Shown here piece after piece: positions 12,991 through 51,678 of a DNA stretch of 64,000 nt (its first letter is position 1; each line of letters starts with the position of its first letter). The position numbers and the translations under genes are program-made. The notes under the pieces were generated by a model. It was not told the DNA's origin, searched no databases, and was given only the letters and a program-made list of their open reading frames with translations. This DNA is from Candidatus Latescibacterota bacterium (GTDB lineage Bacteria > Latescibacterota > UBA2968 > UBA8231): the NCBI GenBank assembly GCA_965200315.1, contig OZ241362.1:96001-160000 (forward strand). The letters are read 5' to 3'.

Positions 12991-13008
12991 GTTGATGGAC
13001 GAAAGACG

Positions 13009-13908: not shown

Positions 13909-13972
13909 AACTATAGTGGTCGGCGATCAGCGCCCGTTGTCGCTTGGCCGCTATCAAACCGAAAGGAATCCC

Positions 13973-15688
13973 ATGTCCAGAGGTATTCGCAACTTCGCCA
14001 TTTTTGTCGTCGCCCTGCTCGCGTCTTGGATCATAGGTATCAATGTGGCCCCGACGTGGACGGTCGAAAAGATCGAGTTGGACGTGAAAACGGACAGCGA
14101 CGGCATGTATTATATCTACCGAGACAAACCCGCCTATTTCGAGTCCGTGCCCATGGCGCAAGCCCAACTCGACCCGGCTAAAATTGACGGGTCGAGGACG
14201 GCGCCGCCGATCACGGAAGAATTTGTCTCTGTGGCGGAGACCGGCAGCTACTACAAGCTGATAGCCAAGCGGCACTGGAGCTATTGGTCACTGCTGCCGG
14301 CGATAGTGGCTGTGCTGTTGTGCTGGCTGACCAAAGAACCGGTCACCTCGCTGTTGGGCGGCATCATCGCTGGTGCTCTGCTGATGGGCCGCTACGACTT
14401 CACCGGCGACGTGCTGATCCCCTCGTTGGCGACCAAAAGCGCGGCCGGAGTTCTACTGCTCTACTTGTGGCTGTTGGGCGGGCTGATGGGGATATGGTCG
14501 CGCACGGGGGCGGCTCAGGCTTTTGCCGAGTTTATGACCGTGCGCTTTGTGCGCGGCCCCAGAAGCGCCAAGCTGGTCGCTTGGCTGCTCGGGGTCATCT
14601 TTTTCCAAGGCGGCACCGTCAGCACGGTGCTGGTCGGCACTACGGTCAAACCGATTGCCGACAACGAAAAGATCAGCCACGAAGAGCTGGCGTACGTGGT
14701 GGACTCAACGGCCTCGCCGATTGCCTCGCAGCTCGCGTTCAATGCTTGGCCCGGCTACGTGCAGGCGTTCATCTTCGTCTCTGGCGTCGGTTTCTTGGCC
14801 ACAGAAGCCGATCGCATTGCCTTCTTTTTTCAAAGTGTGCCGTTTTGTTTTTACGCCATCTTTGCCGTCTTGGGCACGTTCCTCCTCAGCATTGAAAAAC
14901 CGCTCTTTTTGGGCAAGCAACTCAGAGAGGCGATGAATCGCTCGCGCACGACCGGCCAGCTCGACGCCCCCGGTGCCGATCCCCTGAGCGCCAAGGAACT
15001 GCAAGGGAGCAACGTACCCGAAGGCTACACTCCGCACGTCCTCGAATTCTTCTTGCCGCTGGGTACGCTCATTGCCATTGCCGTTGGCACCTTTATGGTC
15101 AGCGGATCGCCCAATGTGCAGTGGGCTTTTGGCATGGCGCTCTTGTTGGCTGCGGGTATGGCCTTGGCCAAGGGCATGGCGCTCAAAGACCTCATCGGCG
15201 GTTTTCACGACGGCCTCAAGGGCGTGGTGCTCGGCTCGGTGATTTTGCTGCTGGCGATCACCATCGGCGGCATTAGCAAGGAGACGGGCGGCAGCATCTT
15301 TTTGGTCGAACAGCTCGGCGAGGCCATTCCGTATTTCCTCCTGCCGGTCCTGCTTCAGCTTCTGACGATGGTCATTGCCTTTTCCACCGGCACGAGCTGG
15401 GGCACGTATGCGGTGGCTTTCCCGCTGGCCATGCCGCTGGCTTGGGCGGTGGCTGGTGCTAACGGCCTAGCGCATCCAGAGCTTTTTATGACGTTGTGTT
15501 TTGCTGCGGTTATGGACGGCAGCGTGTACGGCGACCAGTGCTCGCCGATTTCGGATACCACCGTGCTTAGCTCCATGTGTACGGGCTGCGACCTGATGGA
15601 CCACGTCAAGACGCAAATTCCCCAAGCGACGATCGCGGCGGGCTTGGCGGCTTTGTGCTGGACCACCGTGGCGTTCTTCACCGCCTAA
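13973..15688 (+). CDS. Na+/H+ antiporter NhaC family transporter
   Basis: [35 protein letters not shown] and [14 protein letters not shown]...[21 protein letters not shown] before ATG 13973. Confidence 0.9.
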
Positions 15689-26223: not shown

Positions 26224-27165
26224 ATGCTGGACGAACTGTGCAAAATCCGCTATGCCCGCTTCCGCTTGGAGATGACGGCGGTCGGGCGCTTGCGGTTGCC
26301 CCCATACAAGGGTTCGACCTTTCGGGGGGCCTTTGGCCATACCTTCAAGCGGCTGGTTTGCGTCAAGCGGGATCTGGACTGCGCGACCTGCCTGATCTGC
26401 GACCAGTGCGTGTATTACTACGTTTTTGAGACTCCGTTCAGTGGCGCGGGCGACCGCCGGGGATATGCTTTGGCACCGCATCCTTTTGTGATTGAACCGC
26501 CCGAGGAGACGCGGGAAATCTACGAGCCGGGGGCCGAGCTGCGGGTCGGCCTAGTCTTGGTGGGACGCGCCTTAGACTACCTGCCGTACTTTATCTACGC
26601 CTTTGAGGAAGTGGGACGCCGAGGGTTGGGAGCCGGGCGCGGCCAAGCTGCTTTGCAGCGGGTGGTGGCCCTTGGGCGTGAGCCTAGCGACGATAGGTGC
26701 ATCTATCAGGCGGGGGCAGGACAACTCGCGTCGGACTATCCGGTCGGCGTGGGTGCGCCCGACGTGGCGGTTGGAACGCGGCTGCGGCTGCGCTTGTGTA
26801 CGCCGGTCCGTCTCAAGGCCGAGGGGCACTATATTCGTCGGCTCGACTTTCCCCTGCTGGTGCGGGCCTTGTTGCGGCGCGTTTCGGATTTGGCCCGCTT
26901 CCACTGCGGGGCCGAATTGGACTTGGACTACCGGCAGTGGATTGAGTGCGCCGCCGAGGTGCAACAGGTGGCGGCTGGGGTGCGCTGGCACGACTGGGAG
27001 CGGTATTCACAGCGGCAGGAACAGAAAATGAAATTGGGCGGGCTGGTCGGCGATGTGGAGTTTGCTGGCAAGTGGGGTCCGTTTTTGCCGCTGTTGCGGC
27101 TGGGCGCACATTTGCACGTGGGCAAGGGCACGAGTTTTGGGTTGGGACGCTACGAAATTTTGTGA
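26224..27165 (+). CDS. cas6: CRISPR pre-crRNA processing endoribonuclease Cas6
   Basis: GSTFRGAFG, Cys cluster CVKRDLDCATCLICDQCVY, PHPFVIEPP, WHDWERYS..Q..M.LGG, and G-rich loop HVGKGTSFGLGRY. Confidence 0.95.
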   Translation: MLDELCKIRYARFRLEMTAVGRLRLPPYKGSTFRGAFGHTFKRLVCVKRDLDCATCLICDQCVYYYVFETPFSGAGDRRGYALAPHPFVIEPPEETREIYEPGAELRVGLVLVGRALDYLPYFIYAFEEVGRRGLGAGRGQAALQRVVALGREPSDDRCIYQAGAGQLASDYPVGVGAPDVAVGTRLRLRLCTPVRLKAEGHYIRRLDFPLLVRALLRRVSDLARFHCGAELDLDYRQWIECAAEVQQVAAGVRWHDWERYSQRQEQKMKLGGLVGDVEFAGKWGPFLPLLRLGAHLHVGKGTSFGLGRYEIL

Positions 27166-27177
27166 AGGAGATGGTCT

Positions 27178-27714
27178 GTGGTATCCAAAGAAGCGTTAGT
27201 CATCGGTGCCTTGCTATACGATATAGGCAAGTTTGAATTCAGAACCGAGAATCGGCGGGAGCACCACACCACATACGGGGACTTTTTTGTCGATGAGTAT
27301 TTGCGTCGGTTCCGCTGTATGCAGCCGATTTTGGCAGATATCCGGCGGCTGGTCGCACACCACCACGAAAGGGAGTTGGGCGACCCCTTTCTGCGGCAAG
27401 CCGATCATCTGGCAGCAGCCGACCGGCAGGTGGATGGTAACCCCGAAACTTTGCGGGCACTGGTGAGTATTCTGGCCGCCGTGCAGATTGGCAAAGGCGA
27501 TCCGCCCCAGGAAAAGGACGTGCATCGGTACGTGCCGGGGCCGGTGGATTTTGCCGATCCTTTTCCCGAATGCGTACCGGGCGTCGCGGTTGCCGCATGG
27601 CAGCCCAACCGGGAACAGGTGCGGGACGAGCACACCCACGCTTGGGAGCAGTTTTGTGCTATGAAGGTCAGGAAGGTGGACGCCCAAGGCAAGATAACGC
27701 AGGTGGCTCCTTGA
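27178..27714 (+). pseudogene. cas10: Truncated Cas10/Csm1 (HD-domain N-terminus only, HD changed to YD)
   Basis: IGALLYDIGKF...H...G, VAHHH, ADHLAAADR, LVSIL and FP...W..F match the Csm1 N-terminus. The protein ends at 178 aa with no Palm/GGDD domains. Confidence 0.8.
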
Positions 27715-27783
27715 GCGGCTATCATCACCATTGAACGCACCAAGCGCAGGGGTAAATTTTTCCACCTCAACGTAAGGAGATAC

Positions 27784-29529
27784 ATGATGGGGCAGGAGCA
27801 TATTCTATTGACCAGTCTGGGAATGCGATCCCAGGAAACGACGTACCAGTGGGGTGAGGATGAAGCTGCCGCGCCGCTGACGCCCTTGGCATTGGTGAAA
27901 CTTCTCGACCCGTCGCAGCGGCCTAATCGCGTTGTCGCAGTGGTCACGAAAGAGGCCAAGGCTGCAACGTGGGAGACCTTTGAGGCGGGAATTAAGAAGA
28001 CCCTCGGCTTTGAACCCGAAAAGATTTTGATTCCCAACGGCAGCAACAGCGACGAAATCGGTCAAATTCTCGAAAAAGTGGCCCAGCGCATTCCCGAGAA
28101 TGCGAAACTCACGCTCGACGTTACGCAGGGCCTGCGGCATTTTCCATTCATCTTTTACGCCTTGGTGCTCTACCTCAAATCGTTGCGCGGCGTCCAAGTT
28201 CGCGGTGCCTACTACGGCATGCTAGAAGGACCAGGGGTTCCCAAACCCATCATTGACCTGCAGCCCTTGCTTGAATTGCCGGAGTGGTTCCACGCGGTGC
28301 GGATGTTCCGCGATCAAGGGACGACATTGCCCATAGCACAACTGATTCAGCCGTTGGCAGATAGGCTAGCTGGGGAAGCTGGGGAATTGTTCAAGGCCGG
28401 TAACAAGTGCGAGGGGCAACAACGCAGTGCTCAAGCTAAGCAAGTCAAACATGTCATTGGTTGGCTCGAAAAGCGTTCGTTTGCTTATGAGTCTGCTTTG
28501 CCGCTGGAATTGGGAAAGGCCAGTCAGCAGCTCATCGAGCCGATTGGCAAACTGGCCTGCATGGGCATCGCCGGCCTCCCGCCCCTTGCTGCAAGACTGA
28601 CGGATTCCATCGCCAGCGTGGCTAAAAAAGCGGCCTTTGCAGGTGCTGTAAAAGGGGGAGGGGTGTGGAAAACCGGCGTCTGTCTGAATGAAAATGAAGA
28701 GGAATTAGCGCGTCAGGCCCAGATGATTGATTTGTACCTAGAGCGCGACCAACTCCCGCTGGCGGCTGGTTTAATGCGCGAATGGGTGGTCTCTTGGGCC
28801 ATTTGGAAATCGGGGGAGACCAAGTGGTTGGACCCCGCAGTGCGCCAGCAGTATGGGCGCCGCCTCGGTGCTCTTGGTGCCTTTGCCAGAAATTCTGCGA
28901 AATCCAGCATCACGCCGAAACAGAAGGCATTCGGCACCTTCTGGAATCAGTTGACGAATGAGCTACGCAATACTCTGCACCACCATGCCATGCGTGAAGA
29001 AGCACTTGAAAAGCCACCCAAATCCCTTGAGGCGGTGCAGAGCTTTTGGGACCAACTGAAAGCAAACGAGATTGACCTACCAACGTTAGGTGGCGGCGGC
29101 GGTACGCTGCTGCTTTCGTCTCAAGGAACGCGACTAGGCGTGTTGTTCTCGGCGTTAAAGGTCGCTCAACCTGATAGCTGTCTGGTGATCTGTTCGGCCG
29201 AAACCGCAAGCAGTATTTGCGAAGCCGCCCGACATGCAGGCTTTACAAAGCCCATTGATCGGATCGAACTGGCCGACCCGCACGGTGGTTTTGATGAGAT
29301 CAAGGCGGCAGCGAAAAAGGCCCACGATACTCTGCTGAATGCCGACAAGGTCGTCGCCAACGTGACCGGCGGCACGACCCTGATGGGATTGGTTGTGCAA
29401 CGGCTGGCTGAAGAGGCCAAAAAACTGGATCGCCCGGTACGACGCTTTGCCCTCATAGACCGTCGGCTTCCGACCGAGCAGGACAGCGATCCATTTGTAC
29501 AAGGCGATTGCCACTGGATTGACAACTAG
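27784..29529 (+). CDS. csx1: Csx1-type CARF-HEPN ribonuclease fused to a C-terminal second CARF (ring-nuclease-like) domain
   Basis: N-terminal CARF (LLTSLG, LDVTQGLRHFP, AYYGML, IIDLQPLLEL.EW) and HEPN RxxxxH (RNTLHH). A GGGGG linker precedes LLLSSQGT.LGVL...ANVTGGTTLMG. Confidence 0.85.
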   Translation: MMGQEHILLTSLGMRSQETTYQWGEDEAAAPLTPLALVKLLDPSQRPNRVVAVVTKEAKAATWETFEAGIKKTLGFEPEKILIPNGSNSDEIGQILEKVAQRIPENAKLTLDVTQGLRHFPFIFYALVLYLKSLRGVQVRGAYYGMLEGPGVPKPIIDLQPLLELPEWFHAVRMFRDQGTTLPIAQLIQPLADRLAGEAGELFKAGNKCEGQQRSAQAKQVKHVIGWLEKRSFAYESALPLELGKASQQLIEPIGKLACMGIAGLPPLAARLTDSIASVAKKAAFAGAVKGGGVWKTGVCLNENEEELARQAQMIDLYLERDQLPLAAGLMREWVVSWAIWKSGETKWLDPAVRQQYGRRLGALGAFARNSAKSSITPKQKAFGTFWNQLTNELRNTLHHHAMREEALEKPPKSLEAVQSFWDQLKANEIDLPTLGGGGGTLLLSSQGTRLGVLFSALKVAQPDSCLVICSAETASSICEAARHAGFTKPIDRIELADPHGGFDEIKAAAKKAHDTLLNADKVVANVTGGTTLMGLVVQRLAEEAKKLDRPVRRFALIDRRLPTEQDSDPFVQGDCHWIDN

Positions 29530-29652
29530 CAGTGTAGTTGATGTTGTGCTGGGGCAGAAGGAGCTTCCCGGCCGGTCTGATGCAGCGGCTGGGCCGTTGA
29601 GGCTTTTTGCTCTGGCGCATTGAGAGGGCACTTGGGACACAGAGGAGCGCAC

Positions 29653-31551
29653 ATGGACGCGCAGAAAACATTGCACGAGGCACGCCAGCACGTCGCCGCA
29701 GATGAATTCGACCGGGCCGAGAGCTTGTGCGCCGACATCTTGGTGGCCGACCCGGTTTGTGTGCCAGCGCATCAAGTGCTGGCCCGTGCTTGGCTGGGAC
29801 AGCGCGAACTCGACCGAGTGCGCGACCGCCTCGAGTACCGCAGTCAGTTGCCCCACGACGAACACTACGTCGAGTGGGGCCTGATCGCCGAGGAGCTGGA
29901 AGATCTGGAAAAGGCCAGCCAGATCTACGAAGAGCTTTTACAGCGCGAGCCGCAAAATCCCACCGCCCTGTACCACCTCGGGTTGCTCTGTTTAGAACGC
30001 GGCGAGCGGGACCGGGCGGTGGGCCTGTTGCAACGCACCCTGCGGGCGCAGCCAGAACGCGCGGCCGCTGCTTTTGAGCTGGCCCAGTGCTATGCTGAAG
30101 ACGAGTTGTGGGGGCTCGCGGCCGACGCGTACGAGCGCGGTTTAGGGCGCGACCCAGCCAATGAGGACGCCCGCATCGCCCTGAAGGTAGTGAAGGCCCG
30201 GATGCAGGAGTTGGCCCAGTTGCCCAAGAGCGAGACGCCGGTCGGCCATGGCCCGGCCCGGCGCATGCGGGTGTTGTTTGCCGGGCGGGAAAACGTCCAC
30301 GCCCGGCAGTGGATCGACGAAAACGGCCGGGTCGGCTACAGCCCGGTCCACGAGCCCCTTGCCGAGCCCCTGTTGGCCCTGCACTTGCAAGGATCGGCCA
30401 CTTTGGGCGCGTACCCGGTGCGGGCAGACCAGACCGTGCTGTTTGGGGCCGTTGACATAGACGTGCGGAAGAGTGCGCTCGCAAAGGGCGAGGAGGGCGA
30501 GCCGGTAGCAGCCCAACTGCAGGAGATCGTGCAAGCCGATGCCCGGCGGCTCGCCCGGCAGTTTGAGCAGTTGCACTTGCCGGTATATGCAGAAGACAGC
30601 GGCTACAAAGGCGTTCACTTGTGGCTCTTTCTGGCCGAGCCTGTGCCCGCCGCTGCGGTCAAGCGCTTTTTAGAAGCCATCGTCCAGCGGGTCGGCCCTC
30701 CCGCTCCCGAACTCCAGTGGGAGGTTTTTCCCAAGCAAGAACAGGTCACCGCCGATCAGCTCGGCAATCTGATCAAACTACCGCTGGGCATTCACCTGAA
30801 GACCGGACGCCGGTGTTTGTTCACAGACTTGGAAGGACGTATATACAGCGATCAAGAAGATTTTCTTGAGCGCGTCCAACAGGTTGAGCGCCAAGCCTTT
30901 GACCAAGCCGCGTCCCGCTTGGTAGCCCCGCCCGGCCCAGGCGGCGCAACCGGATCGGCTCAAGACCTGCGAGCCGCGTTCCCCGAATACGAGGCCCTCT
31001 TCAAGGGTTGCCCGGTCTTGATTGCCCTGATGGAAAAAGCCGTGAGTACGCACCACCTTACCCACGACGAGCGCTTGGTACTCAAGTGCTTCTTAGGGCA
31101 CTTGGGCGAGGGAGGCCGCCGGCTGATTCACGGCATTGTGGGGCATTGTCTCGATTACTCTGAATCCATTACCCAGCAGCAGATCGAGCGCACCCCGCCC
31201 TCGCCCATTAGCTGCCCCAAAATTCGGCAGCGTCTCCCGGATGTTACTTCCACGGTCAACTGCGCCTGTGTATTTGAGTTGCCCGCCGGAGGCTATCCTT
31301 CCCCGCTGTTGCATCTCGAACCGACCTTTACTGCGGGGCGATCCCACAAAGCCGAGCGCCACGAGGCCCTCGTCGACCAATACGTAAATTTGCGGCGAGA
31401 GCACCAGCGATTGAGCCGCGAGCTAGCAAAGGCGGAAGAGGACCTGCGCTACGCCTTGCATTCGTCGGAACAGGACGAGTTGCGGGCGGGCGGGTGGATT
31501 CTGCGCCGCGACGGGGACGATCGCCTGCGGGTGGAGGTCGACTTGGGATGA
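29653..31551 (+). CDS. CRISPR-associated primase-polymerase (CAPP): TPR repeats + AEP + PriL-CTD-like Cys domain
   Basis: N-terminal TPRs. AEP motifs AVDID, EDSGYKGVHLW, EVFPKQ and GNLIKLPLG. Cys sites GCPV, HCLDY, PISCPKI and NCAC. The stop overlaps the cas1 start (ATGA). Confidence 0.88.
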   Translation: MDAQKTLHEARQHVAADEFDRAESLCADILVADPVCVPAHQVLARAWLGQRELDRVRDRLEYRSQLPHDEHYVEWGLIAEELEDLEKASQIYEELLQREPQNPTALYHLGLLCLERGERDRAVGLLQRTLRAQPERAAAAFELAQCYAEDELWGLAADAYERGLGRDPANEDARIALKVVKARMQELAQLPKSETPVGHGPARRMRVLFAGRENVHARQWIDENGRVGYSPVHEPLAEPLLALHLQGSATLGAYPVRADQTVLFGAVDIDVRKSALAKGEEGEPVAAQLQEIVQADARRLARQFEQLHLPVYAEDSGYKGVHLWLFLAEPVPAAAVKRFLEAIVQRVGPPAPELQWEVFPKQEQVTADQLGNLIKLPLGIHLKTGRRCLFTDLEGRIYSDQEDFLERVQQVERQAFDQAASRLVAPPGPGGATGSAQDLRAAFPEYEALFKGCPVLIALMEKAVSTHHLTHDERLVLKCFLGHLGEGGRRLIHGIVGHCLDYSESITQQQIERTPPSPISCPKIRQRLPDVTSTVNCACVFELPAGGYPSPLLHLEPTFTAGRSHKAERHEALVDQYVNLRREHQRLSRELAKAEEDLRYALHSSEQDELRAGGWILRRDGDDRLRVEVDLG

Positions 31552-32546
31552 TTCTCTACGTGACCGATCAAGGGGCTGGCCTCTACCGCCGCGGGGAGCG
31601 CTTGCAGGTGCGGCGGCGCAAGGAAGTGTTGGCCGATGTGCCGCTCTACGAAGTGGAACAGGTCGTTTTTATGGGGCCAATCGCCCTTTCTACCCCAGCT
31701 ATGGGCGCCTTGCTCGAACGGGGCGTGGACACAGTCTTGCTGAGCACCCACGGCCAGTACCGGGGGCGGCTGGTCGGCCCGGCCCGGGGCAACGTGCTGC
31801 TGCGGCAAAAGCAGTTCAAGCGGTACGAGGACGAGGCGTTTCGTTTGGGCGTGGCCCGGGCAGTGGTGGAGGGCAAGTTGCGCAATATGCGGACGTTGCT
31901 CATGCGCTTGGCCCGGCGGCGCGGGCTGGAGGTAAAGGCCGTGGCCCACTTGCTGCGGCGATCGATTCAGCAGGCGCAGCAGGCCCCGCACGCCGAGGTG
32001 CTGCGCGGCATAGAAGGGGCTGGGACGGCGGCGTATTTCAAGGCGCTGGGCACTTTTTTGCCGGCCGAGCTCCAATTCAAGGGGCGCAACCGACGCCCGC
32101 CCAAAGATCCGGCCAATGCGCTGCTCAGCTTTGGCTACGCCTTGCTGGCCAACAGCGTAGAGGGCGCGATTTACTTGGTGGGGCTCGATCCGTACTTGGG
32201 CTTTTTGCACGTGGTAGATTACGGCCGCCCTTCGCTGGCACTGGACTTGATGGAGGAATTTCGCCCGGTGTTGGTGGATGCGGTGGTCTTGGACTTGGCC
32301 AATCACGGCCAGGTGCAGGGCGACGATTTTGAGCAGCGCGATGGGGGCGTGTTTCTGCGCGGCGATGGGCGCAAGCGGCTGATTGAGGCATACCAGCGGC
32401 GTCTTGAAGATCGGGTTGCTTATCCGGTTGGAGCCGAGCGGGTGGAGCGTATTTCTTACCGGCGTTGCCTCGAATATCAAGTGCGCCGACTGGCTCGGGT
32501 GATCTTGGGCGAGGCGGCTCACTACACAGCTTTTTTGGTGCGCTGA
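31548..32546 (+). CDS. cas1: CRISPR-associated integrase Cas1
   Basis: LYVTDQGA, catalytic GIEG..AAYF, RRPPKDPANALLSFGY, GLDPYLGFLH and LALDLMEEFRP. Confidence 0.98.
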   Translation: MILYVTDQGAGLYRRGERLQVRRRKEVLADVPLYEVEQVVFMGPIALSTPAMGALLERGVDTVLLSTHGQYRGRLVGPARGNVLLRQKQFKRYEDEAFRLGVARAVVEGKLRNMRTLLMRLARRRGLEVKAVAHLLRRSIQQAQQAPHAEVLRGIEGAGTAAYFKALGTFLPAELQFKGRNRRPPKDPANALLSFGYALLANSVEGAIYLVGLDPYLGFLHVVDYGRPSLALDLMEEFRPVLVDAVVLDLANHGQVQGDDFEQRDGGVFLRGDGRKRLIEAYQRRLEDRVAYPVGAERVERISYRRCLEYQVRRLARVILGEAAHYTAFLVR

Positions 32547-32547
32547 G

Positions 32548-32823
32548 ATGTTTGTAGTCGTATGCTTTGACATCAGCTCGGATCGGACTCGTCGGCAGGC
32601 GACTCGGGTGTTGGAAGACTACGGGACGCGGGTGCAGAAGAGCGTTTTCGAGTGTCGCATGGGTGAGCGGCAGTTCGTGGAGCTGCGGTACCGCATGAGT
32701 CAGCTCGATTTGGCGGCAGGCGATCTAGTGCGCTATTATACGTTGTGTCGAGCGTGTCAAGCCAAAGTCGAATTTACCGGCGGTTTGCCTCCGCAGGAGG
32801 AAAGAAGCCATATTATCGTCTGA
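32548..32823 (+). CDS. cas2: CRISPR-associated Cas2
   Basis: VVCFDI..DR.R, YGTRVQKSVFEC and D.VRYYTLC..C. Confidence 0.97.
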   Translation: MFVVVCFDISSDRTRRQATRVLEDYGTRVQKSVFECRMGERQFVELRYRMSQLDLAAGDLVRYYTLCRACQAKVEFTGGLPPQEERSHIIV

Positions 32824-33081
32824 AAACAAAATTTGCGACCCTCGTAAAAAGATGTTCGCCAATATGACAAAATGGTCTTATACTCTTTTAGGCTACAACG
32901 AATTAGGCATGTTACCTAGTCCAATCTTGGGTCGCAAATAGGTAACTACCTGTTCCGCAAGTGGTTAGATGAATACCCTTTCAGCAAGCGGCGCGTTTTT
33001 AGCGGGCAGATGCCTGTCAAAGTGGCGTGCGTCGCAAATGAGGGGCCAACTAAGTGTGGCTCAATAGATTAGAAAGGAGGA
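32824..33081 (+). promoter_or_regulatory. CRISPR leader
   Basis: 258-bp lower-GC non-coding segment between cas2 and the first repeat. Contains three GTCGCAAAT motifs and three IHF-like CAA-N4-TTA motifs. Confidence 0.88.
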
Positions 33082-36000
33082 CACAGAATTTAGGACCCGA
33101 TTTGTAGGGGATTGAAACCCGATGCGGGCCTTTATAACCTCAGGCTTTGCACGCACAGAATTTAGGACCCGATTTGTAGGGGATTGAAACCCAGAACAGG
33201 GTGTCGTGCTTGCGGTTGAACTGTTTCACAGAATTTAGGACCCGATTTGTAGGGGATTGAAACCTCGTCCAGGGCTACCACCCCCTCTTGCTCTTCGTGG
33301 GGCACAGAATTTAGGACCCGATTTGTAGGGGATTGAAACTACGGGGTGCTGCGGAGGTGCTGCTGGAGGTGCTTTGCCACAGAATTTAGGACCCGATTTG
33401 TAGGGGATTGAAACTAAACGCGACGCGAAGGGGCCAACAGCGAGGAACGGCGGCACAGAATTTAGGACCCGATTTGTAGGGGATTGAAACGGCGGAGAAC
33501 GCTACAGCCATGGCGACGATCGCCATGGCACAGAATTTAGGACCCGATTTGTAGGGGATTGAAACTACTCCCTCCAAGAGGCGCTCAACGACCTCCAGCT
33601 CGCCTCACAGAATTTAGGACCCGATTTGTAGGGGATTGAAACCCCTGGCGGGCACCGGCTACGGCCAAGTCGCCGTCCACAGAATTTAGGACCCGATTTG
33701 TAGGGGATTGAAACCACCACCGAGATTAGGAGCTCTCGGACGCGGGTCATTCTGACACAGAATTTAGGACCCGATTTGTAGGGGATTGAAACCCGTAGCC
33801 TCCTTGAGCTCGGCCAAGAGCTTTGGGGATCACAGAATTTAGGACCCGATTTGTAGGGGATTGAAACGATCTGTACCCCCATTCTCTAGCGGGTCCTTCT
33901 AGAGATCCACAGAATTTAGGACCCGATTTGTAGGGGATTGAAACTACGGGTCCAGACCGAGCTTTCATCAACGACGACGCACCACAGAATTTAGGACCCG
34001 ATTTGTAGGGGATTGAAACGAGGGTCAGGTCGGCCAGGCGGGCGGCGGGGGGCAGCGTCACAGAATTTAGGACCCGATTTGTAGGGGATTGAAACCTTCG
34101 TGGTGCTTCGTGGGTGCGGGGATACTGAAAAGTTGCACAGAATTTAGGACCCGATTTGTAGGGGATTGAAACCTAATCGCGGGAGGCGGCCTCTTGGGCC
34201 TCCGGTGGAAACACAGAATTTAGGACCCGATTTGTAGGGGATTGAAACGCATACACAACGACCGCAGCCGCCTCGTCTTCGACCGCACAGAATTTAGGAC
34301 CCGATTTGTAGGGGATTGAAACCACCGCAGTCGGTCATCTGCTGGGCGCTCAGCTCCTGCACAGAATTTAGGACCCGATTTGTAGGGGATTGAAACTGAT
34401 AGGGAGGCCGCAATTGGCCTCTCGGAGGGGGACTCCCTGCAGCACAGAATTTAGGACCCGATTTGTAGGGGATTGAAACACGAAGAAGTTCGCCTGGACG
34501 ATCCCTAGGCGGGCGTCCAGCACAGAATTTAGGACCCGATTTGTAGGGGATTGAAACTACTACTACCGGCCGACCGTCGGCCAGTAGTACGCCGCCACAG
34601 AATTTAGGACCCGATTTGTAGGGGATTGAAACTCGGCCTTCGAGATGGGGATTGTCCAATAATAACACAGAATTTAGGACCCGATTTGTAGGGGATTGAA
34701 ACATGCCCTGCGCCTGGCCGTGCGCCCATACGCGGCCGCTGTGCGTCACAGAATTTAGGACCCGATTTGTAGGGGATTGAAACCTTTCTTTTAGTGTGCA
34801 TGCGCGGCATGCGTTTTCCCACACAGAATTTAGGACCCGATTTGTAGGGGATTGAAACACTTCGGGGAGGGAGGCTTTTTGCCACCCCTCCTCCGGTACA
34901 CAGAATTTAGGACCCGATTTGTAGGGGATTGAAACCCGTCACCAACGGCGGCGGTTACTACAGGTATTTCCGTCTCACAGAATTTAGGACCCGATTTGTA
35001 GGGGATTGAAACGATGAGAATGGCCCCGGCGACGGGGGCTGCCAGCGCACAGAATTTAGGACCCGATTTGTAGGGGATTGAAACGCGGCGGGGGTGGAGC
35101 TGGCCCTCGCGGGCCCACCGGCACAGAATTTAGGACCCGATTTGTAGGGGATTGAAACCTACTTTCTCCGGCAGACATACGAGTAGCGAAACTACACAGA
35201 ATTTAGGACCCGATTTGTAGGGGATTGAAACTCGTGGTAGGCATCGCCGGGCCCAGAATCCCGGCGCACCACAGAATTTAGGACCCGATTTGTAGGGGAT
35301 TGAAACTAGCAGGATGAGATAGTCGGAGTACGGCTGATCATATACCACAGAATTTAGGACCCGATTTGTAGGGGATTGAAACCACCATACTGGGCCGGGG
35401 ATGGCCCGCCCGTAGCCGGCGCACAGAATTTAGGACCCGATTTGTAGGGGATTGAAACGAACATACCAGGGCGACCAAGTGAATCGGCAGAGTGCCGACA
35501 CAGAATTTAGGACCCGATTTGTAGGGGATTGAAACTTCTCCAGGGCCGTGTCGAACGTCTTGGGCGTGCCGCAGTAGCACAGAATTTAGGACCCGATTTG
35601 TAGGGGATTGAAACGGGGGGATAACCATCTCGAGATGGAGGTAGCGCCCCCCCTGGGCGCATACCTCCACAGAATTTAGGACCCGATTTGTAGGGGATTG
35701 AAACTCGTAAGCGAGGAGACATTAAGTGGAGTTTTCACTCTCCACAGAATTTAGGACCCGATTTGTAGGGGATTGAAACGTCGAGGAACATCACACCACG
35801 CTCCCCCTTACCGGGGACACAGAATTTAGGACCCGATTTGTAGGGGATTGAAACCCCCTCCCCTTTACTTACTTCTCCTCGTCGGCAGCCGAAGCACAGA
35901 ATTTAGGACCCGATTTGTAGGGGATTGAAACGTGAAAAGCTTCGGCCATTCGGCCGACTGAAAATATAACACAGAATTTAGGACCCGATTTGTAGGGGAT

Positions 36001-42000: not shown

Positions 42001-45000
42001 ATATGACGCTTGCGCTTGGCTTCGTCCTGGCACAGAATTTAGGACCCGATTTGTAGGGGATTGAAACTCTTGCGGATTGGCGCGGGCGTCAAGACGGGCG
42101 TCAAGACACAGAATTTAGGACCCGATTTGTAGGGGATTGAAACCGATTGCGAGATTACGGTATTCTTCGCAATCCGGAGTTCACAGAATTTAGGACCCGA
42201 TTTGTAGGGGATTGAAACGGAGAAGATCACGGCGCTGAGTTCATCTTGGTGGTAGTGTCACAGAATTTAGGACCCGATTTGTAGGGGATTGAAACTCACG
42301 CGCTTGCTGATGGAGCTTGTGGAGATGCTGCACTCACAGAATTTAGGACCCGATTTGTAGGGGATTGAAACGAATCTGGAGCTTGCGCTTGCGCGCCATC
42401 GGCTTGCGCCACAGAATTTAGGACCCGATTTGTAGGGGATTGAAACTGTGGTGAACTGCTTTTGAACTGCTGCGCTCCCTTGCGCCACAGAATTTAGGAC
42501 CCGATTTGTAGGGGATTGAAACCATATACGATATACGCGCGTATGTGCGTGTGCACGTGCGTCACAGAATTTAGGACCCGATTTGTAGGGGATTGAAACT
42601 GGAGGCCGGCGACCTGTTTGACGGCCATCACACCGGCGCACAGAATTTAGGACCCGATTTGTAGGGGATTGAAACTTCCTAGTAAGTTTGAGCCCGTCAA
42701 TCTCTACCTCGGACACAGAATTTAGGACCCGATTTGTAGGGGATTGAAACCTTACTGAGGTAGTTTCGGGCGACCTCGGCCAGCTTCCACAGAATTTAGG
42801 ACCCGATTTGTAGGGGATTGAAACGCACGATTCGCGTGCGCACGCGCGATATGTACCTAGGATCACAGAATTTAGGACCCGATTTGTAGGGGATTGAAAC
42901 ACCCGGTAGCTGCTCATAGTACCTCGTCCTTACCCTACACAGAATTTAGGACCCGATTTGTAGGGGATTGAAACTTGGCAGCGTGCCACTCGTCATTAGC
43001 CGCTACTACTGCACAGAATTTAGGACCCGATTTGTAGGGGATTGAAACTCAATGCAGATGGAGAGATGGCAGGTGGGGACACAGAATTTAGGACCCGATT
43101 TGTAGGGGATTGAAACGCTAGTTCTGCATGCAAGTTCAGTATCCGATTAGTCATTCACAGAATTTAGGACCCGATTTGTAGGGGATTGAAACGTCCTTCT
43201 CGTGGCGAGGTTGCACGGCCATCTCGAAGACACAGAATTTAGGACCCGATTTGTAGGGGATTGAAACGATCGCCCTTGTCGCCCTTGTCGCCCTTGGGTC
43301 CGCGTCACAGAATTTAGGACCCGATTTGTAGGGGATTGAAACCCTACTGCTGCCATAAGGATGATTTTGACTTCCCCGACACAGAATTTAGGACCCGATT
43401 TGTAGGGGATTGAAACTGATTGAGCTGCCGATTGGCAGCGTGCCACTCTTTGTCACAGAATTTAGGACCCGATTTGTAGGGGATTGAAACATCCAGGCGA
43501 GCTTGTTCTAGTTCTGCGAGCAACATCAGCACAGAATTTAGGACCCGATTTGTAGGGGATTGAAACCTGATGTAACCATCCCTCTTTATCCCGATAGCGC
43601 TGGGCACAGAATTTAGGACCCGATTTGTAGGGGATTGAAACTGCCCGCTCGCTGCCCGTCACGTTGTTCCTTCGGGCGGCACAGAATTTAGGACCCGATT
43701 TGTAGGGGATTGAAACCCAAGGAGATTGAGGATGGAGACCCATTTGCAGAAGATGCGCACAGAATTTAGGACCCGATTTGTAGGGGATTGAAACGCGCTT
43801 CGTACTGCTCTCTTCTCGTCACTTTCAATCTCCTCACAGAATTTAGGACCCGATTTGTAGGGGATTGAAACCACTCACGACGGGCGTCGGCAGCGGCTTC
43901 ACGCAGCCGCCACAGAATTTAGGACCCGATTTGTAGGGGATTGAAACTACTGACTTGCGAGCTGGCGGGCCGTCTTGGCCCATTCCCACAGAATTTAGGA
44001 CCCGATTTGTAGGGGATTGAAACATATTGTCGAAAGAGATCATTTTGGTTCCTCCTGCGCTCACAGAATTTAGGACCCGATTTGTAGGGGATTGAAACTG
44101 ATAATCCGATCATTGAGCTTTTTCAGGTTCTCTTGCACAGAATTTAGGACCCGATTTGTAGGGGATTGAAACCCATAGGTCTGTACGGTTCGCTCGATCA
44201 GTCTTTGATGCACAGAATTTAGGACCCGATTTGTAGGGGATTGAAACTCGCGTCATACTGTTCTTTCAACTTCGCTACCTGCGTCACAGAATTTAGGACC
44301 CGATTTGTAGGGGATTGAAACTCATAGCATTGAGCTTTTTCAGGTTCTCTTGTTGCCGGACACAGAATTTAGGACCCGATTTGTAGGGGATTGAAACCCT
44401 GCAACTTCGCGCTATTGCGTTCTCGCATTACGTTACACAGAATTTAGGACCCGATTTGTAGGGGATTGAAACTGATACGACGAGCCCGAGTTGTTCGCGC
44501 AGGAGTTTCACCTCACAGAATTTAGGACCCGATTTGTAGGGGATTGAAACCTTCGGGGTCCCGCCGGACCCCCAGCGAGATTTCCTTCGCACAGAATTTA
44601 GGACCCGATTTGTAGGGGATTGAAACGCGTCATAGGCCGCGTCAACGGCTTGTGCTGCGTCTCACAGAATTTAGGACCCGATTTGTAGGGGATTGAAACT
44701 TGAAAGTCATTTCCTCATCTCCTGATAGTGTGAACTGCCACAGAATTTAGGACCCGATTTGTAGGGGATTGAAACTACGTAAATTCAAACTCCTTCATTT
44801 GATCTCCTCAAGGGACACAGAATTTAGGACCCGATTTGTAGGGGATTGAAACTGAGCAGCGCCCGGCGCGCGCTTTCAAGCTGGCACGCTTCACAGAATT
44901 TAGGACCCGATTTGTAGGGGATTGAAACTTCTGCGTAGCTTACCGATAGCTTTTGATTCAGCCATCACAGAATTTAGGACCCGATTTGTAGGGGATTGAA

Positions 45001-48000
45001 ACTCGGGATCCTCTTACCACCGGTACCACCCGTTTGACTTGGCACAGAATTTAGGACCCGATTTGTAGGGGATTGAAACAAGAATAGCTCCCTACCCATC
45101 ACCTAGGCGATTACTTCGGCACAGAATTTAGGACCCGATTTGTAGGGGATTGAAACGCCCGCGATCCCCTCTATCGCCCTTGTCGCCCTTGTCGCACAGA
45201 ATTTAGGACCCGATTTGTAGGGGATTGAAACGTAATGCCTTCTCGGCACTGAGGGCGGCCGCTGGCCGTCACAGAATTTAGGACCCGATTTGTAGGGGAT
45301 TGAAACTCAAGCCCTCCCCGTGGCCCTCCGCCTCGCCTTTCTGAACACAGAATTTAGGACCCGATTTGTAGGGGATTGAAACTTGTCGAATACTAATCAC
45401 ATAGGAGCCTACTCATGACCACCACAGAATTTAGGACCCGATTTGTAGGGGATTGAAACTTACAGGTACGAACAAAGTCATCTATATGCTCCATGAGGCA
45501 CAGAATTTAGGACCCGATTTGTAGGGGATTGAAACGTATCTCCTGCGCTCTATGTGCTGAAATAAGGTTCATCACAGAATTTAGGACCCGATTTGTAGGG
45601 GATTGAAACATACTCTCCGTAAGTCATAATGCCCCTCCTGCGCTTTCGCGCGGCACAGAATTTAGGACCCGATTTGTAGGGGATTGAAACTTGTTAGTTG
45701 CAAGTTGCGAGAAGCGCGTTGCGCGCTTCACAGAATTTAGGACCCGATTTGTAGGGGATTGAAACCACCGGGCCGCCATACGCCTCGACCCCACGATCGT
45801 GCGCCACAGAATTTAGGACCCGATTTGTAGGGGATTGAAACCCCAGTTCCCGGAGGATTGAATCCACCATCCCCGGCCACAGAATTTAGGACCCGATTTG
45901 TAGGGGATTGAAACCATGGACCGTGCCGCGCGCCACGTCGGCGAGCCAGAAAGCACAGAATTTAGGACCCGATTTGTAGGGGATTGAAACTAGTTCTGCG
46001 AGCAACATTAGGGTTCTTCTTTCGTTATGCACAGAATTTAGGACCCGATTTGTAGGGGATTGAAACTTCTTTCGTTATGCGCCCGCGAGCGCGTGATACC
46101 GCTTCACAGAATTTAGGACCCGATTTGTAGGGGATTGAAACTTATAAAGCTCCCACGCCCAATCTTCGAAAGATCGGATTAACACAGAATTTAGGACCCG
46201 ATTTGTAGGGGATTGAAACGGGAAGGATCTTCATCCCACCACCAGCTACCGAAGTCCACAGAATTTAGGACCCGATTTGTAGGGGATTGAAACTCGGGCG
46301 TCAAGCGTTCAAAGGTCTGATTCTCCAGCGGCACAGAATTTAGGACCCGATTTGTAGGGGATTGAAACTGCGATAAAGACGCGCCGGATCATTGCCGAGC
46401 TTGAAGACACAGAATTTAGGACCCGATTTGTAGGGGATTGAAACACTTCTCTTTCGCTTGCCATATCGCGTATGAATCCGATAGCCACAGAATTTAGGAC
46501 CCGATTTGTAGGGGATTGAAACATGCCGTTCTGCTCTAGCTGGGCGCGGGCGTGGTCCAGCGCACAGAATTTAGGACCCGATTTGTAGGGGATTGAAACT
46601 TGCTACTAGGCGCGGCGGCGGCGCACCCGTTCAACGACACAGAATTTAGGACCCGATTTGTAGGGGATTGAAACCCCAGCGCGCAAATGCGGCGCGGTAT
46701 TCCGCATAGAGCTTCACAGAATTTAGGACCCGATTTGTAGGGGATTGAAACGTTCTCGCGCCGTAGGCGCGCCGTGAGGATGGCCGTCACCACAGAATTT
46801 AGGACCCGATTTGTAGGGGATTGAAACCCCAGCGCGCAAATGCGGCGCGGTATTCCGCATAGAGCTTCACAGAATTTAGGACCCGATTTGTAGGGGATTG
46901 AAACGTTCTCGCGCCGTAGGCGCGCCGTGAGGATGGCCGTCACCACAGAATTTAGGACCCGATTTGTAGGGGATTGAAACCCGAAGATGCGGCTTGGTGG
47001 GCGGCGATCAGCTCTAGGAGCACAGAATTTAGGACCCGATTTGTAGGGGATTGAAACTCAGCGCTTCGCGCGCCCTCGACAACTCGGATTCAGCGCACAG
47101 AATTTAGGACCCGATTTGTAGGGGATTGAAACCTTTCGTTATGCGCCTATCGGCGCGTGATTGATACCGCTTCACAGAATTTAGGACCCGATTTGTAGGG
47201 GATTGAAACCCGATTGGAAGAAAAGTTCAATCTCTACTTTCTTCATCCACAGAATTTAGGACCCGATTTGTAGGGGATTGAAACGAAAGAAACAGTTAGT
47301 TTCTGCTGAAGCCATTTGCCGGACCACAGAATTTAGGACCCGATTTGTAGGGGATTGAAACTCGAAGGCGCGGCGCCGCATCGCGTCGTCGTCGCCGGCG
47401 CACAGAATTTAGGACCCGATTTGTAGGGGATTGAAACTTCGATGCGCTCGCGCCATAGGCGCACCTCCTCCTCCGCACAGAATTTAGGACCCGATTTGTA
47501 GGGGATTGAAACTCTTGCCTGCCGAGCACGACCGCTTGATCCACTCTCCGCACAGAATTTAGGACCCGATTTGTAGGGGATTGAAACTCGCGTTCTCCCA
47601 TACCTCGTATGCGTGCCTATATGCGCGACACAGAATTTAGGACCCGATTTGTAGGGGATTGAAACTAGACTCCTTCCTTTTCTTTAGCTTTGAGAGTACC
47701 TCACCACAGAATTTAGGACCCGATTTGTAGGGGATTGAAACTTAGTGGTTGTGAGAGCCACTTACCGCTCCAGCCTTCACCACAGAATTTAGGACCCGAT
47801 TTGTAGGGGATTGAAACTGCTCTAGCAATGTCACTTTAGTTCCCTCTCTTTGTTTGCCACAGAATTTAGGACCCGATTTGTAGGGGATTGAAACCGTAAT
47901 CGCCTATCTGAGGTGCTACAAGCGTCCTATGACCACAGAATTTAGGACCCGATTTGTAGGGGATTGAAACCTGTAATGGCCTATTTGGCCGTTAAGTGGA

Positions 48001-51000
48001 TGCCTTGGGCACAGAATTTAGGACCCGATTTGTAGGGGATTGAAACTGGATCTGCGCTCGGCCGAGAGCTTGCAAGCATCCTCAAACACAGAATTTAGGA
48101 CCCGATTTGTAGGGGATTGAAACCACTTGAAAACCACCCAATAGGAGACTGATATGAGCATCACAGAATTTAGGACCCGATTTGTAGGGGATTGAAACCC
48201 ATGACGGCATGGACGCCGCCAAGGCCGTTGACGGCGACACAGAATTTAGGACCCGATTTGTAGGGGATTGAAACAGGTAGACCAGCTTGACCAGCGCCAG
48301 CGGCGTCAGCTCCTCACAGAATTTAGGACCCGATTTGTAGGGGATTGAAACCCAATGAGGCCGCCGATTAGTAGACATACTAATGCTTTCCACAGAATTT
48401 AGGACCCGATTTGTAGGGGATTGAAACTTAAATCGCCGAAGCCCTCGCCAGCGAGGGTGATGCTTCACAGAATTTAGGACCCGATTTGTAGGGGATTGAA
48501 ACCCGGTCGTCTGATGCCATATCCACAGGCTGCGGTTCTCACAGAATTTAGGACCCGATTTGTAGGGGATTGAAACGCCCGATGAGCAGGCTGACGCCGG
48601 CGGTCGCTAGGACACAGAATTTAGGACCCGATTTGTAGGGGATTGAAACCGGACGGCGCCAAGGTGATCGCCGGTGATGGCGTAGCCACACAGAATTTAG
48701 GACCCGATTTGTAGGGGATTGAAACCGTCGACCGCACTACGATATCGAGGCATCGTCGTCGCTGCACAGAATTTAGGACCCGATTTGTAGGGGATTGAAA
48801 CCCAAGGACCCCTACCAGATACGGTCGGCCTATACGATGGGCCACAGAATTTAGGACCCGATTTGTAGGGGATTGAAACAGCGCTATTCGCGCCGGGTCG
48901 GCCGCATCCAGATGCGCACAGAATTTAGGACCCGATTTGTAGGGGATTGAAACCCAAGGCACTTCTTCGCACGCAAGCGGTACACAAGCGCGACACAGAA
49001 TTTAGGACCCGATTTGTAGGGGATTGAAACCACCGTGACGCCTGCCCCCGGTGGTGTAATTATCGGCGGCACAGAATTTAGGACCCGATTTGTAGGGGAT
49101 TGAAACGATATACTAACGTCTCATGCGGCTGCGGCTATGACGGGCACAGAATTTAGGACCCGATTTGTAGGGGATTGAAACCCCGAAAGGCTTCGCGGAT
49201 CCGCCGAGCGGAGTTACGCTCACAGAATTTAGGACCCGATTTGTAGGGGATTGAAACGCAAGCCAAGGACCCGCGCCAGATGGCGGCGGCCTATATGACA
49301 CAGAATTTAGGACCCGATTTGTAGGGGATTGAAACTTAGACTAATAAAGAGTTTCATTTCGTTATCCTTAGAGCACAGAATTTAGGACCCGATTTGTAGG
49401 GGATTGAAACTACATCCCGAGCGAGGCATGCCTCTTCTACCCGACCCACAGAATTTAGGACCCGATTTGTAGGGGATTGAAACTTGCGTATGCCCCCGTC
49501 TAGACTATTGCCCGTCCCTGTCCCACAGAATTTAGGACCCGATTTGTAGGGGATTGAAACTCAGCCGCTGCTCTTGGTGCTGGTCTACGCCTTCCTCCGC
49601 CACAGAATTTAGGACCCGATTTGTAGGGGATTGAAACCCCGTTCCCTTCCCCTTCGAGCACGATGCTCTCAGGGGCACAGAATTTAGGACCCGATTTGTA
49701 GGGGATTGAAACTCGCCACGATGGCGACAGCCGCGATGACCGTCCATGCGCACAGAATTTAGGACCCGATTTGTAGGGGATTGAAACGAAACCGTTTGGG
49801 GTCTCCTTCCACTCCGTCTCCCCCGGCACAGAATTTAGGACCCGATTTGTAGGGGATTGAAACATTAGGGCTTTTTGTCCAAGCGTCTTCGCCCGGCATG
49901 CGGCACAGAATTTAGGACCCGATTTGTAGGGGATTGAAACGAGGGCCTCACCACCGAGCCCCTCAAAGGCCTCAAGCACCACAGAATTTAGGACCCGATT
50001 TGTAGGGGATTGAAACTATTACTCCCTCGGCGAGGCGGGTTTCTGCGGGAAATTCCACAGAATTTAGGACCCGATTTGTAGGGGATTGAAACGCGGCAGC
50101 AGCAGCCTTCTTGGCGGCCTTTTTTGCTTCTCACAGAATTTAGGACCCGATTTGTAGGGGATTGAAACCGCCGAACTCTTTCTGGAACCCCTCGGTGAGG
50201 AGGGCACAGAATTTAGGACCCGATTTGTAGGGGATTGAAACACCAGGCCATCAACGGCTGCACGCAGGCACTCCAGCACCTTCACAGAATTTAGGACCCG
50301 ATTTGTAGGGGATTGAAACTTCAGCCCCACTATATCGTACGGATACTGGATCGCATACCACAGAATTTAGGACCCGATTTGTAGGGGATTGAAACGAGGT
50401 TGAAGACACGACGACCGCGGGGCGGCCGTCGAGGCACAGAATTTAGGACCCGATTTGTAGGGGATTGAAACCCCAGCGCGCGCAGCTTATGGGCTACCGT
50501 GCCGTAGGACACAGAATTTAGGACCCGATTTGTAGGGGATTGAAACATATCTGGCCGGGCTGGACGAAGCAGGCCGTCTGCCGCCCACAGAATTTAGGAC
50601 CCGATTTGTAGGGGATTGAAACATGGGGACTTGGTGTATCATGGGCATACTTCAATCCTCCACAGAATTTAGGACCCGATTTGTAGGGGATTGAAACTAG
50701 CTGGTGTGTGCGCTGGAGGGCTTGCCCCATATCGCGCACAGAATTTAGGACCCGATTTGTAGGGGATTGAAACGTACATTTCATCTCCGTCTCCTTTTTT
50801 GGAGTGGGAGCCACAGAATTTAGGACCCGATTTGTAGGGGATTGAAACGCGGAGCATCTCGTCGTGATACCGACGGATGCGGTCGCGCACAGAATTTAGG
50901 ACCCGATTTGTAGGGGATTGAAACATAGCGACGTCATACTCTTATCCTCAGCTGGCCACGGCACACAGAATTTAGGACCCGATTTGTAGGGGATTGAAAC

Positions 51001-51678
51001 GTGGTCGGCTCCCGCTCCGGCGGGGCCTCCAGGTGGAGCTCCACAGAATTTAGGACCCGATTTGTAGGGGATTGAAACGTACTGCCCCACCTCGAACGCC
51101 GGCACCGCATCCACCTCCACAGAATTTAGGACCCGATTTGTAGGGGATTGAAACGTTAGCTTCTCGTAATCCTCTGCAATATCGTAATAGCGCGCAGAAT
51201 TTAGGACCCGATTTGTAGGGGATTGAAACACAAGTTACGCCATTCTATCTTCAGCGAGACTCGTCGCAGAATTTAGGACCCGATTTGTAGGGGATTGAAA
51301 CACATAGGGATTAGTACATCCTCTCAGTAGGGAGTAGGTCGCAGAATTTAGGACCCGATTTGTAGGGGATTGAAACGCCCCAGAAGCGAACACGCCACTC
51401 GCCCGCCGCATAGACGCAGAATTTAGGACCCGATTTGTAGGGGATTGAAACGGGTGGGTATTCCGTTCTCCTGCAATTCGGCGCGGGCGCGGCGCAGAAT
51501 TTAGGACCCGATTTGTAGGGGATTGAAACATCCTGCGACGTGGTCGGCCAAGGCCTGCGCTTCCTGCGCAGAATTTAGGACCCGATTTGTAGGGGATTGA
51601 AACCCTTGACGATGTGCTGCTCTTTGCTGCTCATAGTTCAACGCAGAATTTAGGACCCGATTTGTAGGGGATTGAAAC
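33082..51678 (+). CRISPR. CRISPR array with a 37-bp repeat, about 245-250 units (estimated from a ~75-bp mean period)
   Basis: Repeat CACAGAATTTAGGACCCGATTTGTAGGGGATTGAAAC ends in the ATTGAAAC handle. Spacers are about 33-44 nt. The last 7 repeats carry a CGCAG variant. Confidence 0.99.

Follow-up and report, generated by a model that had tools for sequence, protein, structure and literature searches.

The window analysed here, a stretch of 64,000 nucleotides (G000:C1:96001-160000; contig OZ241362.1) from the single-contig genome (5,359,245 bp) of a Candidatus Latescibacterota bacterium, carries a CRISPR locus that descends from a type III-A (Csm) system and is flanked on both sides by housekeeping genes. 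Comparison with intact operons in sister genomes shows that this locus was recently disarmed by one in-frame deletion, which removed the effector genes and spared cas6, a gene for a CRISPR-associated primase-polymerase (CAPP), cas1, cas2, the leader and a long repeat-spacer array. These surviving parts are predicted to comprise everything needed for making and renewing CRISPR RNAs (crRNAs), and we put the probability at about 0.6 that the module of cas6, adaptation genes and array still serves type III-B (Cmr) effectors encoded elsewhere in the chromosome, above all an array-less operon referred to here as Cmr-B, in trans.

One in-frame deletion removed the Csm effector genes

Between cas6 and a csx1-family gene lies an open reading frame (ORF) of 178 residues, which scores 45.9 bits against TIGR02578 (cut-off 170) and contains a Pfam HD domain. 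All window features are on the forward strand and are given in window positions (Table 1). The ORF stops after 161 Cas10 codons, and the locus holds no full-length Cas10/Csm1 with Palm/GGDD cyclase domains. A search with the 178-residue protein against 41 genomes gave 11 with any match. Over residues 1-162 the stub shares 72-74% identity with the beginning of Cas10 frames of 789-803 residues in the congeners G022, G001 and G019, and 48-50% with the starts of frames of 826 residues (G032) and 794 residues (G025) from another family.

The sister loci reveal what is missing. In G019, cas6 is followed by an IS4 transposase and small ORFs, and then, in this order, by cas10 (799 residues; 562 bits with TIGR02578), csm2, csm3, csm4, csm5 and an ortholog of the 581-residue csx1-family gene. 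Nucleotide homology between the window and G019 ends at 27659, within cas10, and restarts at 27661, 53 nucleotides before the csm5 stop codon, with 5,839 nucleotides skipped. The encoded protein reads AWEQFCA up to the junction and continues as MKVRKVDAQGKITQVAP to its stop codon; this tail of 17 residues matches the Csm5 C-terminus at 17/17 positions in G019 and at 15/17 in both G001 and G022, where the match lies 5,825-5,852 nucleotides downstream of the cas10 breakpoint across the three genomes. The tail was found in three of the four sister loci tested, the Csm5 C-terminus of the fourth, G043, being different. G043 is syntenic with the window from position 22000, through the upstream housekeeping genes and cas6 into cas10, and the alignment stops exactly at 27659; beyond the equivalent point G043 carries the rest of an intact csm operon, followed by cas1, cas2 and an array.

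These comparisons show that the locus lost about 5.8 kb in a single in-frame deletion, which fused codon 161 of Cas10 to the 17 final codons of csm5, and that it took Cas10 from about residue 162 onwards, with all of the Palm/cyclase domains, together with csm2, csm3, csm4 and nearly all of csm5. The stub ORF is still open because the deletion was in frame. A possible microhomology of only 3-4 nucleotides is seen at the junction, where the divergence of the sisters (about 25%) limits precision.

The window contains no Cas10, Csm or Cmr gene except the stub, and no Csm protein is encoded anywhere else in the genome, as judged by whole-genome searches with TIGR02578 and PF03787 and by tblastn with ten Csm proteins from two sister genomes (G019 and G043). 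All six PF03787 matches in the genome, and hence its RAMP proteins, are confined to two Cmr loci. The tblastn search of the genome gave no ortholog of the Csm2-5 proteins of either sister, so that neither Csm2 nor the Csm3/4/5 RAMPs could be assigned; it returned weak matches of Csm3 to Cmr4, and the C-terminal part of the G043 Csm5 matched once, in the operon Cmr-A described below. Orthology and synteny with intact loci establish descent from a Csm locus, and with the effector genes missing the locus is therefore classed as a III-A remnant and not as a working III-A system.

An assembly artefact, with the csm genes dropped by mis-assembly or by the collapse of a strain mixture, can be weighed against independent sequencing runs. 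The stretch 26900-28400 was found in seven listed runs from two studies, of which four were compared (X1, X3, X8 and X9); junction support consists of contigs, not of a raw-read pile-up, and the depth in X8 is about 2 there. A contig of 3,105 nucleotides from X1, an RNA library from what is possibly the source study, spans 26587-29667 with two differences, and one of 2,529 nucleotides from X3, which belongs to the second study, spans 27139-29667 with none. Both cross 27660, and no indels or joints are listed there. The population is heterogeneous at exactly this spot: loose ends leave the window sequence at 27168, three bases past the cas6 stop codon, in X3 (one contig, from a co-occurring variant strain with other sequence after this point) and in X9 (three reads), one loose end in X1 enters at 29638, just before CAPP, and X9 has zero depth in nine bins over 27271-29547, with cas6 and CAPP-cas1-cas2 covered. 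The loose ends and the gap in X9 indicate that the segment between cas6 and CAPP is a variable cassette among strains. Against bridging contigs from two studies, an exact in-frame codon fusion and a genome in one 5.36-Mb contig, however, an artefact is extremely improbable.

The age and state of the stub were assessed from ratios of non-synonymous to synonymous substitution rates (dN/dS), calculated by the Nei-Gojobori method. Over its 161 Cas10 codons the stub gives 0.15-0.18 against three sisters, hardly raised above the 0.11-0.15 found among the sisters themselves, which implies that its divergence accumulated mostly under constraint and that the deletion is young on a scale of dS of about 1. 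The HD motif reads ALLYDIGK in the stub and ALLHDIGK in all five full-length homologues, a replacement of the catalytic histidine by tyrosine that would fit a remnant freed from selection. The fusion of a Cas10 HD domain to a Csm5 tail is most likely inert.

It is hardly credible that this ORF encodes an HD protein that functions on its own, such as the HD subunit of a split Cas10 serving the HD-less Cmr2 (612 residues) of Cmr-B. Its frame is open, with an AGGAG motif 8 nucleotides upstream of a GTG start, and its dN/dS is low, but a low ratio is also expected if the deletion is recent. A split subunit was rejected on three grounds: the segment is the N-terminus of a full-length Cas10 in all five strong relatives, the ORF ends in 17 Csm5 residues, the signature of an accidental in-frame deletion, and the catalytic histidine is replaced by tyrosine in this copy alone.

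An initial annotation, made from the letters of the window, had listed cas6, a 178-residue cas10 stub, csx1, CAPP, cas1, cas2 and the array, had seen no csm2-5 or cmr genes between cas6 and csx1, and had offered recent disarming as one explanation. Family matches and the repeat count confirm the parts, and the TIGR02578, PF03787 and tblastn searches the absence; the csx1 label is acceptable, given a full-length match to the PADLOC CARF_HEPN_CARF family and a TIGR02221 score above cut-off. Recent disarming is supported: the gap relative to the intact csm operons of the sisters is one deletion, young enough for the dN/dS of the stub to be hardly raised, and contigs of two studies bridge 27660, within the interval 27650-27720 that the annotation had named for checking.

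The sister loci also vary between cas6 and cas10. An insert of 2.3-2.9 kb occupies this position in G001 (L023, 3823-6143) and G019 (L025, 16342-19190) and is absent from the window and from G043; the G019 copy includes the IS4 transposase, and a small part of cas6, from its 3' end, is seemingly duplicated on either side of the insert, as judged by overlapping alignments. In a further congener, a full-length Csm1 is preceded, about 6 kb upstream, by an isolated Cas10 N-terminal fragment (G046:C13:4770457-4770816; Csm1 model positions 3-118, a frame of 124 residues with one TGA), so Cas10 HD remnants recur in the genus.

Cmr effectors elsewhere in the genome and compatibility of repeats

Whole-genome searches with TIGR02578 and PF03787, together with family scans, located two complete type III-B operons, Cmr-A and Cmr-B. 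Cmr-A encodes a Cmr2 of 872 residues with an N-terminal HD domain and an SGGDD motif, and also comprises cmr3, cmr4, cmr5, cas1, a second cas6, a CARF/ring-nuclease-like protein, a protein of 234 residues from a PADLOC candidate family and a fusion of cmr6 and cmr1 in one ORF of 776 residues (L010, G000:C1:575001-595000, positions 11885-14215). The C-terminal part of this Cmr6-Cmr1 protein shares 55% identity over 110 residues with the C-terminal extension of the 672-residue Csm5 of G043. Cmr-B comprises cmr1, cmr2, cmr3, cmr4, cmr5, cmr6, csx16 and a gene for a Csx1-family protein of 397 residues with the motif RNAMAH; its Cmr2 has no HD domain and carries AGGDD, and the GGDD cyclase motif is thus kept in both Cmr2 proteins. 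In the 20 kb examined, Cmr-B is accompanied by neither an array nor a cas6 or cas1 gene, and none of the arrays, the three Cas6 matches or the four Cas1 matches of the genome lies near it.

A route from the window array to these effectors can be proposed in three steps. Cas6 would cut the array transcript into crRNAs that carry the 8-nucleotide tag ATTGAAAC, these crRNAs would be loaded in trans into Cmr complexes, above all those of the array-less Cmr-B, and cyclic oligoadenylates (cOA) from the Cmr2 Palm domains, which carry GGDD, could still activate the orphaned Csx1-like RNase of the window. In this model crRNA processing, loading in trans, cross-activation by cOA and continued spacer uptake are inferred. 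An intact Cas6 is accompanied by a type III-style repeat with a short hairpin (a predicted inner stem of 3 bp) and the tag at its 3' end, and cleavage is predicted on this basis. The window array is the sole array with its repeat in the genome, and its repeat has 22 of the last 24 nucleotides, including the tag, in common with that of array A, the array of Cmr-A. Both Cmr-A and Cmr-B qualify as complete effector clusters elsewhere with a compatible repeat or tag.

The distribution of this repeat family was surveyed in 31 genomes of the genus. Arrays with at least 14 copies occur in nine of them, the host included, and full-length Csm1 in only five, so the family accompanies effectors other than Csm too. 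Orthologs of the Cmr-B Cmr2 are present in three of the 31 (the host, G042 and G043). G042 has a Cmr-B-type operon 3.9 kb downstream of an array, and the last 24 nucleotides of the repeat in this array agree with the window repeat at 23 positions; the gap between array and operon holds a CARF gene and a group II intron reverse transcriptase/maturase (L036, G042:C107, 1892-3592). G043 has a Cmr-B operon at the syntenic site, as well as its intact Csm locus and array at the site syntenic to the window, and in the 20 kb fetched around its Cmr-B a search for the shared repeat core, the sole pattern sought there, found no array. These arrangements suggest an ancestral state in which one array may have been shared by Csm and Cmr-B before the deletion.

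The same locus could instead be a decaying relic, its crRNAs unused since the deletion and the module too young to have decayed but heading for loss. Such a fate would accord with the disappearance of the cognate Csm effector from the whole genome, with the hints of relaxed selection in the stub (histidine to tyrosine) and in the csx1-like gene (dN/dS 0.43), and with the presence in other strains of a different cassette between cas6 and CAPP, which possibly makes the deletion form a transient variant. It accords less well with dN/dS values of 0.14-0.17 for cas6 (against G001 and G019) and of 0.12, 0.10 and 0.08 for CAPP, cas1 and cas2 (against G022), with the identity of 239 of the 246 repeats, with the need of an array-less and cas6-less Cmr-B in the same genome for a source of crRNAs, and with the position of the G042 ortholog of Cmr-B beside an array of nearly the same repeat end. 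On balance a relic is rather unlikely.

Spacer orientation and array size

Three spacers are perfect matches to the host's own chromosome (Table 1), all in ordinary chromosomal genes, namely those for an AP_endonuc_2 TIM-barrel protein, an Fe-alcohol dehydrogenase and a TonB-dependent receptor. All three are in mRNA sense; their crRNAs would be unable to pair with the mRNA and are harmless under RNA targeting. A set of self spacers all in sense orientation is the pattern expected after selection by an RNA-targeting effector, but three out of three gives only p = 0.125. Overlaps with spacers of array A occur for five window spacers (seven pairs, E<1e-5), all in the same orientation, and two overlaps of window spacers with an array at 3.78 Mb have the opposite orientation. 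That autoimmunity drove the loss of the effector was considered and rejected, as the orientation of the three self spacers and the ordinary nature of the matched genes leave no self-targeting pressure evident.

The array, with 246 repeats, is about four times as large as the 14-67 repeat-family copies found per congener genome. Two internal duplications, one that makes the adjacent spacers 67 and 68 identical (38133-38247) and one that repeats the block 180/181 as 182/183 (46675-46943), are products of recombination and not of new acquisition. A module that gains spacers without any interference, and merely records them, might account for the fourfold length and for the tolerance of three perfect self-derived spacers. 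Without interference, however, random orientation would be expected, and all three self spacers have the orientation that is harmless under RNA targeting; part of the array length stems from recombination, nothing places the expansion after the deletion, and the genome has two Cmr effectors whose tag is compatible. Effector-independent acquisition of this kind is very unlikely. It is also distinctly doubtful that the locus has become a stand-alone memory hub for two unlinked Cmr complexes, with a genus-unique expansion of about fourfold owed to altered or unrestrained CAPP-driven acquisition, and its finer points carry no more confidence: that strains in the host population exchange or lose effector modules at a hot spot between cas6 and CAPP, and that Cmr-B has been array-less since before the split from G043.

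Continued service to Cmr effectors, and above all to Cmr-B, is the preferred reading, and several observations weigh against it. The first 13 nucleotides of the window repeat are identical to those of the array A repeat at only 5 of 13 positions, the two Cas6 proteins share 34% identity over only about 100 residues, and Cmr-A, which has its own array and Cas6, does not need the window array. The csx1-family gene, whose dN/dS of 0.43 comes from a single comparison, may be under relaxed constraint. The orientation counts are small (p = 0.125 for 3/3 and about 0.03 for 5/5) and could predate the deletion, the timing of which is bounded only loosely with sisters at dS of about 1. Metatranscriptome contigs that contain the locus are not proof of transcription, as such libraries may contain DNA, and the loading of window crRNAs into Cmr complexes is itself a prediction.

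The suggestion of the initial annotation that the locus may feed an effector encoded elsewhere is accordingly plausible, two complete GGDD-bearing Cmr operons being present and one of them without array, cas6 or cas1. It had also held that a complete cognate type III operon elsewhere would make this an ordinary split locus: a cognate Csm operon is absent from the genome, and complete III-B operons with a compatible repeat tag are present. The description of the locus as effector-less does not extend to the genome, and the idea of a record-only acquisition module finds no support in view of the compatible Cmr effectors and the harmless orientation of the self spacers. Nor is the first place that the annotation gave the locus among the window's candidates for unusual biology upheld; the arrangement is an ordinary degraded or split one in a genome with multiple systems.

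A megablast search of the whole array against a phage collection returned nine records, all to one spacer (43268-43305). This spacer contains a tandem repeat of 9 nucleotides with collagen-like Gly-X-Y coding, and its matches of 30-37 nucleotides lie in tail-fibre, minor-tail and collagen-like genes of Gordonia and Mycobacterium phages; they are probably low-complexity resemblance. Exact scans of IMG/VR with spacers 32 and 1 (2 of the 245) gave no matches for either.

Relation to known systems and inventory of the locus

The intact III-A loci of the congeners G019, G043, G001, G022 and G046 have the same orthologous cas6, Cas10 N-terminus, csx1-family gene and CAPP-cas1-cas2, and the same repeat family, ending CCCGATTTxTAGGGGATTGAAAC; G043 also shares the chromosomal site. 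In contrast, the window has lost the Palm domains of Cas10, the genes csm2, csm3 and csm4 and almost the whole of csm5, and its 246 repeats compare with 55-67 repeat-pattern copies per genome in these five.

In Thermus thermophilus, Csm and Cmr complexes share crRNAs. The repeats of distant arrays are frequently compatible with cas clusters that are encoded in trans, as described by Bernheim et al. (2019, PMC7145637), where the use of type I-F crRNAs by a type III-B system in Marinomonas is cited (Silas et al. 2017, PMC5576922). The window array resembles such distant arrays in having no neighbouring effector and a repeat that fits effector clusters elsewhere; it differs in that a cas6 of its own and a complete adaptation module are kept and in an effector loss traced to one deletion, and its use in trans is predicted.

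Type III-A deletions in the Mycobacterium tuberculosis complex are mediated by insertion sequences and also take parts of the array, whereas the window locus has kept its array and adaptation genes unharmed and has no insertion sequence at the junction. Partial deletions of the III-A locus in strains of that complex (PMC5310062) are alike in being natural losses of some cas or csm genes. The CAPP gene belongs with CAPP-TPR (CAPP_A) operons such as CAPP-Cas1-Cas2 of Marinitoga piezophila, which Zabrady et al. (2021, PMC8211822) describe as having, in a type III setting, a TPR and AEP primase-polymerase encoded directly upstream of cas1-cas2, as here. Unlike in those operons, no Argonaute neighbour is seen at the window locus, and the activity of the window CAPP is a prediction.

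The arrangement is thus already known in kind, from degraded cas operons, distant arrays and crRNA sharing, and leaves current understanding unchanged. Its value is that of a cleanly resolved natural case of type III disarming, in which memory and adaptation were kept and other type III effectors plausibly take over. It offers a natural test bed for crRNA sharing between a Csm-type array and Cmr complexes, for cOA cross-talk with a Csx1-family RNase without its own Cas10 and for CAPP-dependent adaptation. The exact Cas10-Csm5 fusion junction and the strain-level polymorphism of the cassette are points that can be reused.

Table 1. Coordinates of the CRISPR locus, its self-matching spacers and the Cmr operons (window positions unless marked as genome positions).
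Feature	Position	Strand	Match or remark
AAA-ATPase_like + PD-(D/E)XK (PDDEXK_9) protein, 695 residues	24123..26210	+	PF09820 E=3.3e-63; PF08011 E=1.5e-20
cas6, 313 residues, intact	26224..27165	+	PF10040 E=4.2e-21; PADLOC Cas6 PDLC01477 E=1.6e-109, residues 7-312
ORF of 178 residues (cas10 remnant + csm5 tail)	27178..27714	+	TIGR02578; Pfam HD
cas10/csm1 remnant, codons 1-161, HD domain only	27178..27660	+	TIGR02578 positions 2-146 of 753
csm5 remnant, last 17 codons + stop, in frame with cas10 remnant	27661..27714	+	Csm5 C-terminus of sisters
Csx1/Csm6-family CARF-HEPN-CARF protein, 581 residues, intact	27784..29529	+	PADLOC PDLC01840 E=1.1e-135, residues 4-580
CAPP, TPR-type CRISPR-associated primase-polymerase	29620..31551	+	NF040561 358.3 bits (cut-off 200); PF22548 AEP E=1.4e-42; TPR families
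cas1	31494..32546	+	PF01867 E=2e-100
cas2	32548..32823	+	PF09827 E=1.1e-18
Leader, 258 bp, 45% GC	32824..33081	+	between cas2 and first repeat
CRISPR array, 246 repeats of 37 nt, 245 spacers	33082..51678	+	18,597 bp
Self-matching spacer	37225-37262		genome 477096-477133
Self-matching spacer	40628-40663		genome 4657264-4657299
Self-matching spacer	48880-48916		genome 213121-213157
Cmr-A operon	genome, about 582-602 kb		complete type III-B; own array, cas1, cas6
Array A (Cmr-A)	genome, 592785-601234		about 108-110 repeats
Cmr-B operon	genome, about 3.005-3.012 Mb		complete type III-B; array-less

The protein of 695 residues is encoded immediately 5' of cas6, and the two genes are linked and collinear in G001 and G043 as well. 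It has no match in PADLOC, and its membership of the CRISPR system is putative. The Cas6 protein is 84% identical to those of G001 and G019.

The protein of 581 residues scores 78.9 bits with TIGR02221 (cut-off 76.25) and has the R-x4-H motif RNTLHHH at residue 395, RNALHHH in its G019 counterpart; with CARF and HEPN domains and a motif of the form R-x4-6-H it belongs to the Csx1/Csm6 CARF-HEPN RNases. It shares 71-72% identity with the G019 ortholog, which sits after csm5, and a sequence search of the PDB returned weak CRISPR-associated matches alone (E=0.007-0.011). CAPP is 80% identical to its G022 ortholog, its TPR and AEP Prim-Pol domains and the adjoining cas1-cas2 place it in the CAPP_A/CAPP-TPR group, and its ORF is separate from that of cas1 and not fused to it; the true start is probably the ATG at 29654.

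Spacers of the array are 31-53 nucleotides long. The seven repeats that deviate from the other 239 are the most distal ones and carry one shared A-to-G change, in keeping with a leader on the cas2 side.

Elsewhere on the chromosome, further arrays are found at G000:C1 positions 1-838, 7732-8175, 3780242-3782181 and 4186939-4188001, cas1 genes at 3.779 Mb and spanning the ends of the contig (fragment 5359050-5359241), and the third Cas6 at 4.195 Mb; with these additional arrays and cas genes the organism has at least five CRISPR loci.

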